A stretch of DNA of 32,000 nucleotides from an uncultured Rivularia sp. (GCA_963665115.1 OY762007.1:4132341-4164340); one strand, 5' to 3'. Shown: positions 8,461-30,695, counted from the stretch's first letter. Program-made: numbers and translations. Notes: generated by a model not told the origin, from the letters alone.

Positions 8461-8810
8461 GCACAAGAAATCTACATCGTTACATCTGGTGAAATGATGG
8501 CGATGTATGCAGCTAACAACATCGCTCGTGGTGTTCTTAAGTATGCTCACTCCGGTGGTGTACGTTTGGGCGGCTTGATTTGTAACAGCCGTAACGTTGA
8601 CAGAGAAACCGACTTGATCGAAACTTTGGCTGCACGTTTGAACACCCAAATGATTCACTTCGTACCTCGCGACAACATTGTACAGCACGCTGAATTGCGT
8701 CGTATGACTGTTAACGAGTACGCTCCTGACAGCAAGCAAGCTAAAGAATACGCTACCTTAGCTGACAAAATCATCAACAACAAAAACCTAACAATTCCTA
8801 CACCGATGGA
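8461..8810 (+). CDS. nifH: nifH segment 3 of 4 (codons 147 to 262 plus 2 nt of codon 263)
   Basis: Encodes [44 protein letters not shown]...[54 protein letters not shown]. The track ORF 8494..8982 is this segment reading on into element 3. Confidence 0.93.
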
Positions 8811-8872
8811 GCGAACAACGCTAACTTTTCATGATATGCTTCTTGTAGTCAAGGCTAGAGGCGGTTTTAGGT

Positions 8873-10255
8873 ATGCGTGTAGGCTACGTTCGGGTTTCAA
8901 CTGGAGAGCAAGAGGAAGCATTGATTCAGCAAACTTCCCGCATCAAAAGAGCTGGTGTTTCAATGATTTTCTCAGATGTTAAGTCTGGTAGATCCAATGA
9001 TAGAAAAGAATTTAACAAACTATTAGAAGCTTGTCAAAAAGGGAATGTTTCAGAAATTGTTATTACTCGAATTGACCGATTAGCTCGTTCAATCGTCACT
9101 ATTAATAAAGCCATCGCATTATTCCAAGAACTAAATATCAAGCTAGTTATTTTAGATTCACCTGTTGATGATTTAGAGAATCCCTTTACTAAGTTTTCCT
9201 TGAATCAAATGGGAGCATTAGCAGAGTTTGAATTAGATTTAATTCAAAATCGGGTTAGGCACGGTTTTAAGCATCTCCGCGAACAAGGTAAAGCTTCCCC
9301 ACCAGTTCCGTTTGGTTATAAGCGAGTAGATGGATTTTATCAGCCTGATTTATCTGTGCATCAACTCCCTGACAAATCAACTAAAACGAAATGGGCGATC
9401 GCCAACGATATTATCGAATATTTATTAGTTAATAAAAAATCTATTCGCGCCACCATTCAGTATTTTTTAAGCGAATATGATATCAAATTTTCTACTACTG
9501 GACTTACAAACTGGTTGCATAATCCTACTCTGCGAGGGGGACACACGAGGTATGGTGTTAAAGCAAATCGTAAAAACCCTGAGAATTGGGATATCAGGCA
9601 CAACACCCATGAACCCTTAATAAGTCATAAAACTTATGAGCAAATATTGGCTTTGTTGGCTGAAAATAGCCGTAGATGGGGGAGAAATGGAGATAAAAGT
9701 AAAGTAGGTAAAGGCTTACTATCGGGTCAAATGTTTTGCGGAGATTGTGGAGGAAAGATGTATGCTCATAATAAGCCTTATACACCCATCTACTGTAAGA
9801 AACGGGGGATGTATGGTTCAGATTTCTGCAAAAACAAGAAAACTATCCATCTTGCTACAGTGATTGAAGCTGTAGATAAAGCCTTAACCGAAAAAGCAGT
9901 GGCATTAAAAGATTATACGATTAATAATCAATCTCATGAAGAGATAGAAACAGCGGAAGTATTAGAACTAAGGAACACATTAGAAAATCTACAGAAATTG
10001 CCCCCGAATGCAGCAATTGAGGAGGCAATAGTAAAAATTAGATTACAGATTGCAAAGTTTCAAAAACATAGTAACGATAGCTTTATTTTTAAAGCAGAAC
10101 AGGTAAAGGAGTTTGTTGAGTTGTTCTCCGATAGCAGACTCTATAAAAATATGAAAGAGTCGGTAAAAAATAAAACGTATAAGAAATTGATTAAGTCAGT
10201 GACTATATTAAGCGGCGAGGTTGTCACTGTTAGCTTTATCGAATTTCTCGGCTAA
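8873..10255 (+). CDS. Large serine recombinase (XisF-like), 460 aa
   Basis: The N-terminal resolvase domain is present ([13 protein letters not shown] with the catalytic Ser, and [10 protein letters not shown]). The recombinase domain and a Cys-rich zinc ribbon follow (CGDCGGKMY...[13 protein letters not shown]). The gene starts 62 bp inside the left junction and runs in the same direction as nifH. Confidence 0.88.
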
Positions 10256-10357
10256 TTCTGGGTTGTTCATAATCTTTTTTAATGTTTCATCATCAAGGTG
10301 TTTGAAGCGTTTGAACAGCATCAATTGTTCTAGTAGTTCTTCGGCTAGGGTTTTCAT
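10208..10357 (-). CDS. Hypothetical 49-aa ORF, convergent with the serine recombinase and overlapping its 3' end by 48 nt
   Basis: My own translation is [49 protein letters not shown]. It falls below the track size cutoff. I recognise no homology and saw no clear Shine-Dalgarno sequence. Confidence 0.2.
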   Translation of the reverse strand: MKTLAEELLEQLMLFKRFKHLDDETLKKIMNNPELAEKFDKANSDNLAA

Positions 10358-10522
10358 CTGCTTATTTACTATATTTACAGTAAAAAATGAAGGAATAAAT
10401 TGATAAAGACTAAGATAAAACTTAATTTTTTGTTGCGCTGTACTCTATAAACCAAACTAAGCATTTTCATGATTAAAGAGAAGCGCATCAGAGAATAAAC
10501 ACTGAAGGAGCAATGAAATTAC

Positions 10523-10925
10523 TTAAAACGTAGACTCTATAAGCTTCATAGCCCTTATACCTTTTTGATAATACTTTTGCTTGTTGCGATTTAATCTGAT
10601 TAATCTGATTACTAATTCTATGCAATCATCCTTGAAAATAACCCAATTTTGACCGTATAAACCAACATAAAAACTGCTATGTCTTCGCTCCAAACGAGGA
10701 TATTATTTGACACGACCTACATATTTTTGTACTCCTTTATGTTTAATTTTTTGACCTTGAATAGTTGCGCTAGTGTAAGCAATTGCTATTAACAACACTA
10801 AACAAATAAAGCGTTTATCTTTAACATTTGTCTCTTCCAAATTATAGCCGCCTGTTTTAAATTATCTAAATATTTCCTCTATATCAAATCGTTTTTTACA
10901 AGCCAAAATTGCGGATTATAAACTA
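10523..10925 (-). pseudogene. C-terminal remnant of an IS4-family DDE transposase
   Basis: The minus-strand translation reads ...CKKRFDIEEIFR*FKTGGYNLEETNVKDKRFICLVLLIAIAYTSATIQGQKIKHKGVQKYVGRVK*YPRLERRHSSFYVGLYGQNWVIF...YYQKGIRAMKLIESTF*. It keeps the Y(2)R(3)E(6)K spacing typical of IS4 with the Y replaced by C, has two in-frame stops and lacks an N-terminal part. Confidence 0.6.
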
Positions 10926-10937
10926 TCAAAATTTGAA

Positions 10938-11211
10938 CTGGGAGAACAAGGAATCGGTGGAAACCGCGAAATCAAAGGAGGTCAGATATTTGCTCCCTTT
11001 GCGATCGCCGACGGAACTCTTGAAGAAGTATTAGACGATAATCCCGACAACGACCCCCCAAGTCTACTTTGCTCATATTAGTGCAAATACTGATGGAGTA
11101 GACCACATTCGTAACTTAGGTGGTAACACCTGGGGTGTCGAAGAGATGCTCGGTGGTGGTGATATGGACTTCAACGATATTGTCTTTAAATTAGACGTAA
11201 CTGTGAGATAA
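10938..11211 (+). pseudogene. 3' remnant of a DUF4114-domain protein gene, frameshifted at a C6 run (11054..11059)
   Basis: Encodes LGEQGIGGNREIKGGQIFAPFAIADGTLEEVLDDNPDNDPP, then in another frame QVYFAHISANTDGVDHIRNLGGNTWGVEEMLGGGDMDFNDIVFKLDVTVR*. This parallels the C-terminus of the 1922-aa protein (SNDPSIYFPYLGANSDGVDHIKLLADNTFGFEDLPKGGDFDYNDLIVKVDFIG). The 5' end is cut off by the IS remnant. Confidence 0.7.
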
Positions 11212-28975: not shown

Positions 28976-29005
28976 GTTAGAGATATTATAAATAACATCT
29001 CCAAC
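28976..29005 (-). terminator. Hairpin after peptide gene 1, related in sequence to the one at 28224..28253
   Basis: GTTAGAGAT (28976..28984) pairs with ATCTCCAAC (28997..29005) with one wobble. It has the same AGAGAT..ATCTC core and a 12-nt loop. Confidence 0.4.
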
Positions 29006-29048
29006 AAGATTGCACCTCAATCACTCAAAGTATTTAACGGCTTTATAA

Positions 29049-29288
29049 TTAACCAAACATTGAGTTATATTGCGCGAGCAACATTGGTTTTACAATATTT
29101 CTCAAAAATTTTGGAAAAGACTTTAATGTATTGCCAAACATTTCATTAAATGATGGGGGTTCGTCTGTAATATATGTTGGTTGAATATCTTTGGATTCTG
29201 CATACAGTTGTTCTCCACCAGTCAAATTTTCAGAAGCTTCATCTGACAATACTTCAAATAATTGCTCTTGATTTTTGTTAATAGACAT
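29049..29288 (-). CDS. Double-glycine-leader peptide precursor 1 (79 aa)
   Basis: The leader is MSINKNQEQLFEVLSDEASENLTGG. The 54-aa Cys-free core is EQLYAESKDIQPTYITDEPPSFNEMFGNTLKSFPKFLRNIVKPMLLAQYNSMFG. Confidence 0.75.
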   Translation of the reverse strand: MSINKNQEQLFEVLSDEASENLTGGEQLYAESKDIQPTYITDEPPSFNEMFGNTLKSFPKFLRNIVKPMLLAQYNSMFG

Positions 29289-29410
29289 TGTTTGAACTCC
29301 AAGTTTTAAAAAAGGTTTTAAGTTGTTTTAAGCCTTGATTGAGGTTTTGCTTTGCTGTTCCTCCATCTGTAAACAATACTAAACGTTTTTTCTCTCAGTG
29401 TAAATAAACA

Positions 29411-29472
29411 AAAGTTGATATCTTTTTTGAAGAATAAACCAACATTTTCATCAAAGTTGACAAAAGTTGATA
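29411..29472. promoter_or_regulatory. Array C: AAAGTTGATA at 29411..29420 plus the tandem pair AAAGTTGACA AAAGTTGATA at 29453..29472, upstream of the peptide operon
   Basis: The array lies 123..184 bp upstream of the ATG at 29288 on the minus strand. It has the same orientation relative to its gene as arrays A and B. Confidence 0.55.
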
Positions 29473-29915
29473 TATCCGTTTTTTGCCCTTGCAAAAAACT
29501 TGATTGTTGGTGTAATAGTTATTCTTTGCTTTTAATTTTTTTTGATTAAATATGATTGCTTAGCTTAAGATATTTAATATATGTAATTATTCCCACATTC
29601 TTGATAAGAAAGAAGTAAATTAATTAGTGATTATTTTAAATAAAATATGAAGCTGTTGATTTTTTTCTAGTAATTTTCACTAACATTTGTTTCTATATCC
29701 GCAAATACCACGACTCGAAGAGAAATAATGCAACTACAACTGTCACAGCATTCGCAGCGGAATTTTACGAAATTATATGATTGCGAGCGGTAGCCTTAAC
29801 GGCAGCTTTGCGGAACGAAAGTGTAGCGTGTCCCGTATGGACTCAGCAATTTACCCTTATACTGGGAATGTTTACTGTTACGCTACTTCCAGCTTAATAT
29901 TGCTCCGATAAATGA

Positions 29916-30690
29916 CTACGCAACAATCCATAGATGTTCGTGGGTATCCGGCCATATTTGAATTTGCGGACGAGCTTCTAGCGCCGTACTAATTAATTGA
30001 CTGGCAATATCGGCGTGAATAGAAACTCCACTGACTCTATCGCGATAATGAGTATAAAAATAGTCATCTAAACTTGCCGCTGTAGGGTCCAATTAAAACA
30101 ATGCGATCGCGAATAAATTCAGGTGACATTTTCCCTGTTAATACCTGATTCATTGAGATTGTAGGGAAACCAGAGCGGAGGTTGCGAAAGTTAGCTAATA
30201 CTTGATAACCACCTATATCATTTCGCAGATAGCCGCCATCCGAAGCATCTAATTCAATTAGAAAACCTTTACCGAGTTTGAGCGATAAAACTTCTTCTCC
30301 AACAAATTCTGGATAAATGCCTTTGCTTTCAAGATAGTTTAAAGCTAACTGCGTTCCCAAACCCAAGATAATGTCGCCGTTTTTATCTTCAATAGATAAT
30401 AGATTACGTCTGACTCTACCATCTTGGTCTACAACTATATCAGAAGCACTTACCTGTCCTAATTCTTTTAATTTTAGTGGTGGATTAACGAAATTAGAAG
30501 CACTACCCGTCATCTTCTAAATTCCGAATAAACTTAGTGTGGATGCAAAAACCTGTACTAGCTGCTTAAATGCTGGCTCTACAGGTAAATCGCGATAAAT
30601 ATCAAGTCCAATAACTGATGGTTGGTGTTGTTTTACGATTGATAATAATCTCATCTTCCCAAAAAATATATCCTTGTATGGTCTACACCT
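29916..30690 (-). pseudogene. CHASE2 sensor-domain gene remnant (in-frame stop, frameshift, both ends truncated)
   Basis: The minus strand encodes ..SVIGLDIYRDLPVEPAFKQLVQVFASTLSLFGI*KMTGSASNFVNPPLKLKELGQVSASDIVVDQDGRVRRNLLS...IRDRIVLIGP. After a frame change near 30070 it continues TAASLDDYFYTHYRDRVSGVSIHADIASQLISTALEARPQIQIW...*. There is no TM region or output domain, and it abuts the right junction. Confidence 0.6.
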
Positions 30691-30695
30691 CTAGA

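Follow-up and report, generated by a model that had tools for sequence, protein, structure and literature searches.

A 21.9-kb element of the nifH-781 type in an uncultured Rivularia sp., with a predicted CC crossover

We analysed a 32,000-nt stretch of DNA from an uncultured Rivularia sp. (GCA_963665115.1 OY762007.1:4132341-4164340), hereafter the window, in which nifH is interrupted by a 21.9-kb element that carries a gene for a large serine recombinase of the XisF family. An earlier reading of this DNA, made from the sequence alone (the sequence-only reading), had recognized a serine-recombinase element in nifH, had described fdxN as intact and had proposed that strands are exchanged at a GA dinucleotide. 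The placement was correct. The fdxN gene (1552-1887) is indeed uninterrupted and encodes a 111-aa Fer4 protein. The features at the two element ends are listed below; attL and attR are the left and right attachment sites of the integrated element, attB is the site in the restored gene and attP the site on the excised circle.

8805..30689, + strand: excisable element, 21,885 bp with one repeat copy counted
8798..8804, + strand: left copy of the direct repeat CTACACC, with the proposed crossover CC at 8803-8804
30683..30689, + strand: right copy of CTACACC, with the proposed crossover CC at 30688-30689
8447..8804, + strand: third piece of nifH (REGKAQ...NLTIPTP), whose last ~22 nt are the B half-site of attL; identity with six orthologues ends at 8804
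8805..8838, + strand: P' arm of attL, in which a hypervariable spacer of 4 nt (GATG) precedes a conserved motif of the G(A)ACGTACAACGCTAAC type, as defined by an alignment of six orthologues, PCC 7102-type loci and a half-site table
8873..10255, + strand: XisF-family large serine recombinase, 460 aa, starting 68 nt from the crossover and co-oriented with nifH
30659..30687, + strand: P arm of attR, CCAAAAAATATATCCTTGTATGGTCTACA, the sole part of the right end of the element conserved with loci L006-L009
30690..30803, + strand: fourth piece of nifH, through the stop codon, whose first ~22 nt are the B' half-site

The left junction reads CTACACCGATGGA at 8798-8810, followed by gcgaac, and the right junction reads CTACACCTCTAGA at 30683-30695, followed by aatgga. 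As the sequence-only reading had noted, these 13-mers are identical at 10 of 13 positions; for two random 13-mers drawn from the window, the chance of at least 10 matches is 3e-4. Both ends of the element carry CTACACC, which corresponds to nt 776-782 of nifH and ends in the CC at nt 781-782. Since an exact 7-mer common to two 36-nt stretches has a chance probability of 0.08, the repeat alone is weak evidence, and it is the comparative data that make it solid. Joins anywhere within CTACACC and at GA are in frame and give products of the same length, which differ only at residue 262 (Leu for the repeat, Met for GA), and the excised length is 21,885 bp with either CC or GA. The earlier derivation of PTPMEMDELE for the GA join, with GA in codon 263 of the reconstructed 297-aa NifH, was accurate; the in-frame joins within the repeat, the identical length and two more elements upstream in nifH were not part of it.

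We compared six orthologous attL sequences, whose recombinases are 77-98% identical. In all six, identity with nifH ends precisely with ACACC. The 4 nt that follow read GATG in the window, TCTT in L001 and AAAA, AAAT, AAAA and GAAA in the others, and they precede the conserved P' motif. Loci of the PCC 7102 type, which read ACTCC AGTG GACTTTACAACG, have the same attL layout. A GA join would make these 4-mers coding, and the six would then specify M, L, K, N, K and K, whereas the 120 nearest NifH proteins have only I, L or M at the corresponding residue. The K or N that would result in L002-L005 argues against a GA exchange, as does L001, which has GG rather than GA at the proposed position.

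On the right side, ACACC is followed by TCTA GAA in the window and by TTTA GAA in L006-L009. In the intact nifH genes closest to it, the 4-mer is TCTC (L020) or TCTT (L021); these genes encode P0146 and P0147, which are 96-98% identical. Because CTA in the window, TTA in L006-L009, CTC in L020 and CTT in L021 are all Leu codons that differ only synonymously, we read the attR 4-mer as coding nifH sequence. Such a match to the Leu codon of the closest intact genes would be unexpected for element-derived DNA, and it too argues against GA.

A direct comparison was provided by L021, a contiguous, element-free nifU'-nifH-nifD-nifK locus that is 99.9-100% identical to L002, an interrupted locus in a metagenome-assembled genome (MAG) with a recombinase 90% identical to that of the window. 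The L021 contig is 100% identical to L002 at three junctions. Identity holds on both sides of element A, one of the smaller elements upstream in nifH, and continues up to ACACC, where it breaks: L021 continues with TCTTGAAATGG and L002 with AAAAGAACGTAC. The point at which the two loci part is therefore the end of ACACC and not GA. This divergence shows that no attL sequence 3' of ACACC is part of nifH, and it does so equally if L021 is an element-free allele or a product restored in a heterocyst.

In L001, positions 1385-1394 differ from window positions 8805-8814 at six of 10 nt, though the adjoining 2 kb is 97% identical, and the L001 spacer TCTT resembles the region around the nifH Leu codon in relatives. 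This stretch, directly inside the left crossover, is a mutational or conversion hot spot. We also considered the contig ends of L023 and L025, from sequencing-run assemblies, as markers of an attL/attP branch point. These fall at +6 and -13 relative to CC and were not used, because they are mutually discordant and equally explained by strain microdiversity. A search of JGI metagenome contigs for junctions of excised circles, with the attP-specific pattern TTGTATNNTNTACACCNNNNGNNCNNACAA, returned six matches, all of them unrelated, chance palindrome-like sequences without a neighbouring recombinase-type flank.

Large serine recombinases make a 2-bp staggered cut at the centre of their sites, and for this reason we placed the cut at the centre of dyad symmetry. 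We scored every possible centre in the reconstructed attB and attP over 20 positions. The best centre common to both sites was CC, with 12/20 symmetric matches in attB (the binomial probability of at least 12/20 is 0.0018) and 11/20 in attP, or 13/20 in an alternative reconstruction. Depending on the reconstruction, a GA centre scored 6-7/20 in attB and 1-3/20 in attP, which is background, and AC- or CA-centred symmetry was at or near background (4-8/20).

We then aligned 20 half-sites on CC, taken from both arms and from both recombinase groups (77-98% and ~52% identical). Every P-type half-site contains C[CG]TTGTA at -16 to -10, and nearly all have TC at -6/-5. The B and B' half-sites, which are the nifH arms, form ATT(C/T)CTA(C/G)A inverted repeats. 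Both right half-sites have GA at +5/+6, the symmetric counterpart of TC at -6/-5 in the left half-sites; the GA common to both junctions is thus explained as a half-site feature, present because both arms bind the same protein. The likeness between the left nifH arm and the inner right arm of the element was thus rightly taken by the sequence-only reading for a pair of related half-sites recognized by one recombinase. Together, the left and right junctions, the spectrum of NifH residues, the divergence of L021 from L002 and the dyad symmetry place the exchange inside ACACC, most likely at its terminal CC (8803-8804 / 30688-30689), and the GA proposed earlier is most likely wrong by 5-6 bp. We infer that the 2-bp crossover is exactly CC. 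We know of no crossover dinucleotide mapped for the XisF family in nifH, and a literature search for one found none.

The protein encoded at 8873-10255 is an XisF-type serine recombinase, as previously proposed. Its 460 residues contain the Pfam domains Resolvase (PF00239, residues 3-140, E = 4e-32), Recombinase (PF07508, 172-265) and Zn_ribbon_recom (PF13408, 282-338). The catalytic motif Y5-V-R-V-S9-T-G-E-Q includes the nucleophilic serine, and the zinc ribbon has its four cysteines (Cys289, Cys292, Cys308, and Cys319). Against the NCBIfam XisF equivalog NF041201, the protein scores 492.6 bits (cutoff, 375) over its full length. All the protein features of the XisF subfamily of large serine recombinases are therefore present: the catalytic domain, the C-terminal Recombinase and zinc ribbon domains and a score above the NCBIfam cutoff. 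The sites also fit the short (~40-50 bp), dyad-symmetric attB and attP with a non-palindromic central dinucleotide that are expected of such enzymes; their motifs are conserved in both arms across 12 half-sites, and the cleavage site is predicted by symmetry. Database relatives include a 100%-identical counterpart (P0001), a close group (69-98% identical) from Rivularia MAGs and Calothrix sp. CCY 0018, and a distant group (~52% identical) that includes the PCC 7102 protein P0017 (53%). A crude scan found no sigma-70-like promoter between nifH and the recombinase ATG. Heterocyst-specific expression could therefore come from nif operon read-through, by which the recombinase gene would presumably be transcribed.

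Elements of this kind are already known. In a survey of 38 genomes, 19 nifH elements fell into six positional variants, and about half of the xis genes encoded serine recombinases (Hilton, Meeks & Zehr, 2016; PMC4874684). Elements of the nifH-781 variant are bordered by ACACC or ACTCC and have, ~70 nt in from the left edge, a serine recombinase gene that is read in the direction of nifH (PMC4874684). Examples are element #3 of Rivularia sp. PCC 7116 (ACACC at nt 781, xis 74 nt from the edge in the + orientation, 62 kb) and element #5 of Calothrix desertica PCC 7102 (ACTCC, 71 nt, 58 kb) (PMC4874684). The element in the window interrupts nifH within 10 nt of nt 781 between direct repeats and begins with a serine recombinase gene that adjoins the edge in the + orientation, and its in silico removal, together with that of two smaller elements, gives an open, full-length gene. 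It is thus a new example of a documented variant, and the novelty that the sequence-only reading had implied for an XisF-type element in nifH does not stand, given the nt 781 site in Hilton 2016 and the heterocyst resolution shown in Uesaka 2024.

The element resembles PCC 7116 #3 and PCC 7102 #5 in its gene, in its position at nifH nt 781 and, for PCC 7102, in the layout of the P' arm. It differs in that it is 21.9 kb rather than 58-62 kb, has unrelated cargo and is flanked by a 7-nt repeat, CTACACC. The host is a different, Rivularia-like strain, and it also has nifH elements at nt ~362 and ~425, which are not listed for PCC 7116. In Calothrix NIES-4101, the serine recombinase CnXisH2 adjoins a nifH fragment that starts at residue 263 (the nifH1-III/IV junction), the repeat is TGG(T/G)GT, or AC(A/C)CCA in the orientation of nifH, and a restored nifH1DK contig was recovered by resequencing N2-grown cells (Uesaka et al., 2024; PMC11249958). 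That repeat covers the same Thr-Pro codons as the repeat described here. The NIES-4101 sites are inverted in the vegetative genome, so that resolution requires inversion or late excision within a nine-step cascade, whereas the sites in the window are direct repeats, for which simple excision suffices. The published repeats ACTCC, ACACC and AC(A/C)CCA have only AC and CC in common with CTACACC; we chose CC over AC because the dyad symmetry centres on CC.

Other systems are more distant. Like the fdxN element of Anabaena/Nostoc sp. PCC 7120, the element in the window is a large element that encodes its own large serine recombinase of the XisF family, lies in a gene of the nif operon and has a short direct repeat. 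The PCC 7120 element is located at TATTC at fdxN nt 289, has xisF at its far end in the opposite orientation and includes xisH and xisI, both needed for it to be excised (PMC4874684). In contrast, the target here is nifH rather than fdxN with its TATTC, and neither xisH nor xisI was found among the element ORFs (open reading frames) that were scanned; the element therefore has neither of the marks of an fdxN element. In SP-beta, the large serine recombinase SprA, with SprB, restores spsM in sporulating B. subtilis by precise attL x attR excision (PMC5499854). There, as is proposed for the element in the window, a large serine recombinase restores a gene in a terminally differentiating cell. 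SP-beta differs in being an active prophage with a known directionality factor, SprB, that sets the direction of excision, whereas the element described here is without phage genes or an identified directionality factor. For heterocystous cyanobacteria, the element is one more example of a well-catalogued phenomenon; what is added here, for one variant, is a model of the recombination sites at base-pair level, with CC at the centre, arms that are symmetric and motifs that are conserved.

The 21.9-kb element is one of three that divide nifH into four pieces within the window. The other interruptions of nifH are listed below.

4458..4825, + strand: first piece of nifH (codons 1 to ~122), with the ACTTAGA repeat of element A at its end; defined by tblastn and blastn against NifH and the uninterrupted nifH of L005
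4819-6661: element A, 1836 bp, at nifH nt ~362, with the repeat ACTTAGA at 4819-4825 and 6655-6661; its only gene, on the minus strand, encodes an XisA/XisC-like tyrosine recombinase
6655..6731, + strand: nifH mini-exon of 71-77 nt between two small tyrosine-recombinase elements
6718-8460: element B, 1729 bp, with the 14-nt repeat TCCGCGAAGGAAAA at 6718-6731 and 8447-8460; it encodes a 481-aa tyrosine recombinase at 6926-8371 on the minus strand

When all three elements were removed in silico, the pieces formed a NifH of 297 aa, with 98% identity to the intact protein P0146. Complete restoration of nifH would thus require that elements A and B be excised as well. Element B corresponds to the nifH-428/429 variant of Hilton, whereas the position of element A is not among the nifH variants of Hilton 2016 (92, 143, 257, 405-409, 428-429, and 781). 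L002 has element A as well, and its absence from L021 is precise. The nifD gene (start, 30953) is split at CGATTA (about 31176-31181), some 227 nt into the gene, by an element that runs past the end of the window. This interruption matches the nifD-227 variant of Rivularia PCC 7116 (#9); the DNA at 31176-32000 is ~69% similar to small recombinase elements of L002 and is of the tyrosine-recombinase type. The locus is therefore a compact illustration of nif fragmentation, with nifH in four pieces, including a 71-nt mini-exon, and nifD interrupted within 32 kb.

Most of the 21.9-kb element is cargo, with the following features.

10256..30658: cargo region, ~20 kb between the recombinase gene and the attR arm
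11732-17500, - strand: RTX/DUF4114 protein, 1922 aa
18266-21007, + strand: TPS exoprotein
21440-23578, + strand: C39-peptidase ABC exporter
23899-26067, - strand: S8 subtilase with RTX repeats
26601-28187, - strand: HlyD
28599-28853 and 29049-29288, - strand: two GG-leader peptides, with double-glycine leaders ..LSDDASEQLTGG and ..LSDEASENLTGG
29916-30513, - strand: CHASE2 pseudogene

The C39-peptidase ABC transporter, HlyD and the double-glycine peptides make up a bacteriocin-type export set (21440-29288). When the window was compared with all orthologous loci, homology covered the nif genes, attL and the recombinase gene and stopped about 230 nt past the recombinase stop codon, indicating that the cargo is not conserved. 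As cargo synteny thus failed to reach attR, we dropped it as a route to the attR sites of relatives and located these through NifD N-terminal fragments. At the right end, conservation with L006-L009 extends over only ~30 nt ahead of the repeat, a length that suits an att arm. The ends and the recombinase of the element persist while the cargo turns over completely, and the remaining ~20 kb is probably exchangeable.

On this evidence, 8805-30689 is likely to belong to the published nifH-781 variant of heterocyst-type gene-interruption elements. Its only conserved parts are the two ends and the XisF-family recombinase gene, and it would be excised by attL x attR exchange at the central CC. Several observations weigh against this reading. 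The CC assignment comes from comparison and symmetry, and the dinucleotide within CTACACC is not readable from the window alone. AC at 8800-8801 also fits all published repeats, though it is poor in dyad symmetry. Exchange at another dinucleotide of the repeat, such as this AC (8800-8801 / 30685-30686), would yield the same nifH product as CC, and attL and attR agree at every position of CTACACC; product sequencing cannot separate the two, as their wild-type products are the same. We nevertheless regard such an exchange as unlikely, since CC is the only centre from which the conserved TTGTA and TC lie equally far away in both attP arms, AC and CA centres lack the symmetry seen at CC, and a mismatch at the third repeat position in NIES-4101 excludes the middle dinucleotides in that relative. 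A GA exchange (8809-8810 / 30694-30695), with CTACACC as a mere half-site similarity, has in its favour that GA is in register in attL and attR and occurs at the same position in five of the six orthologous attL sequences and in PCC 7102. Moreover, P-M-E is found in some intact nifH genes and proteins (L010 and P0148, for example), and CCG ATG GAG in the attL of the window resembles CCA ATG GAA of the distant L010, so that a GA join would be tolerable here. Given the junction, residue and symmetry data above, we consider this exchange very improbable. The two models can be distinguished by four diagnostic junction 22-mers: exchange at CC, or anywhere within CTACACC, predicts ATTCCTACACCTCTAGAAATGG for attB and GGTCTACACCGATGGAGCGAAC for attP, whereas GA predicts ATTCCTACACCGATGGAAATGG and GGTCTACACCTCTAGAGCGAAC, and recovery of CCTACACCTCTAGAAATGG as attB or TCTACACCGATGGAGCG as attP would be incompatible with GA. 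The sequence-only reading had also raised an out-of-register exchange at ATGGA. This 5-nt identity does exist, at 8806-8810 and 30697-30701, but as an excision junction it is scarcely credible, because it would shorten NifH by two residues (PTPMDELE). All 120 of the nearest NifH proteins keep the spacing P-x-x-M-[DE]-[DE]-L-E, and the orthologous attL sequences lack ATGGA.

Other observations bear on whether the element still excises. The element A recombinase gene (5132-6540, minus strand) is frameshifted into the overlapping ORFs 5638-6540 and 5132-5734, whereas its L002 orthologue (7111-8520) is a single 469-aa ORF; either this is a sequencing error or the recombinase is inactivated and a paralogue is required in trans. 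Similarly, nifS has 2 additional nt in a G run (2403-2409) compared with L005, L002, and L010, which splits it into ORFs 2024-2416 and 2347-3237 and reflects either a sequencing error or a pseudogene. These frameshifts may indicate a decaying nif cluster or assembly errors. No Pfam match to XisH or XisI was found among the scanned element ORFs of at least 50 aa, and the rest of the genome may hold copies. Together with the pseudogenes in the cargo, such as the CHASE2 fragments, these points would fit a fossil or ordinary island that no longer excises, in a host that is non-diazotrophic or uses another nifH. We think this very unlikely. The serine recombinase ORF is full length, with its three domains and catalytic Ser motif, and the pieces of nifH are all open and reassemble into a near-identical counterpart of an intact homologue. 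Both frameshifts occur within or close to homopolymer-type contexts, and assembly errors could account for them. Finally, the att arms are conserved despite complete turnover of the cargo, which indicates selection on excision.

Excision of a nifH-781 element at CC would proceed as follows. In a nitrogen-fixing cell, presumably during heterocyst development, the recombinase would synapse attL and attR, cut both sites at CC, the first two bases of the Pro-261 codon, and rotate and religate the ends. A 21,885-bp circle would be released with the attP ..CCTTGTATGGTCTACA-CC-GATGGAGCGAACAACGC.., leaving the attB ..AATTCCTACA-CC-TCTAGAAATGG.. in the restored nifH. The secretion and bacteriocin-export cargo would thereby move from the heterocyst chromosome onto the circle. 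More tentatively, the XisF-like clade of nifH-781 elements may possess an undescribed site architecture, with an attB palindrome formed by the I-P-T-P-L-E-M codons and centred on CC, and with attP arms that carry C[CG]TTGTA at -16 to -10 beside a free 4-nt spacer. In this possible scheme, excision would occur without an element-encoded directionality factor of the XisH/XisI type, and its direction and timing would perhaps be set by nif read-through. If so, the clade would represent a compact excision module, possibly independent of a recombination directionality factor, that keeps its ends and recombinase while 20-60 kb of cargo is swapped.

We also noted further rearrangements in L002. There, nifK from nt 1278 to its 3' end (junction G|TTCT) is inverted ~8 kb downstream of the nifH-781 recombinase (18666-19003), and a second XisF-like gene (~19060-20500) adjoins the inverted end. 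Because of this inversion, the L002 genome seems to need an inversion step, as in Calothrix NIES-4101; L021 shows the matching contiguous nifHDK, 100% identical to L002. In addition, L002 nifB contains an element of ~1.8 kb (L002 183-1994), flanked by the 12-nt repeat ACTATGCAAGAA; it is of the nifB-170 variant that Rivularia PCC 7116 has. At the corresponding place in the window (~209-220), nifB is without this element.

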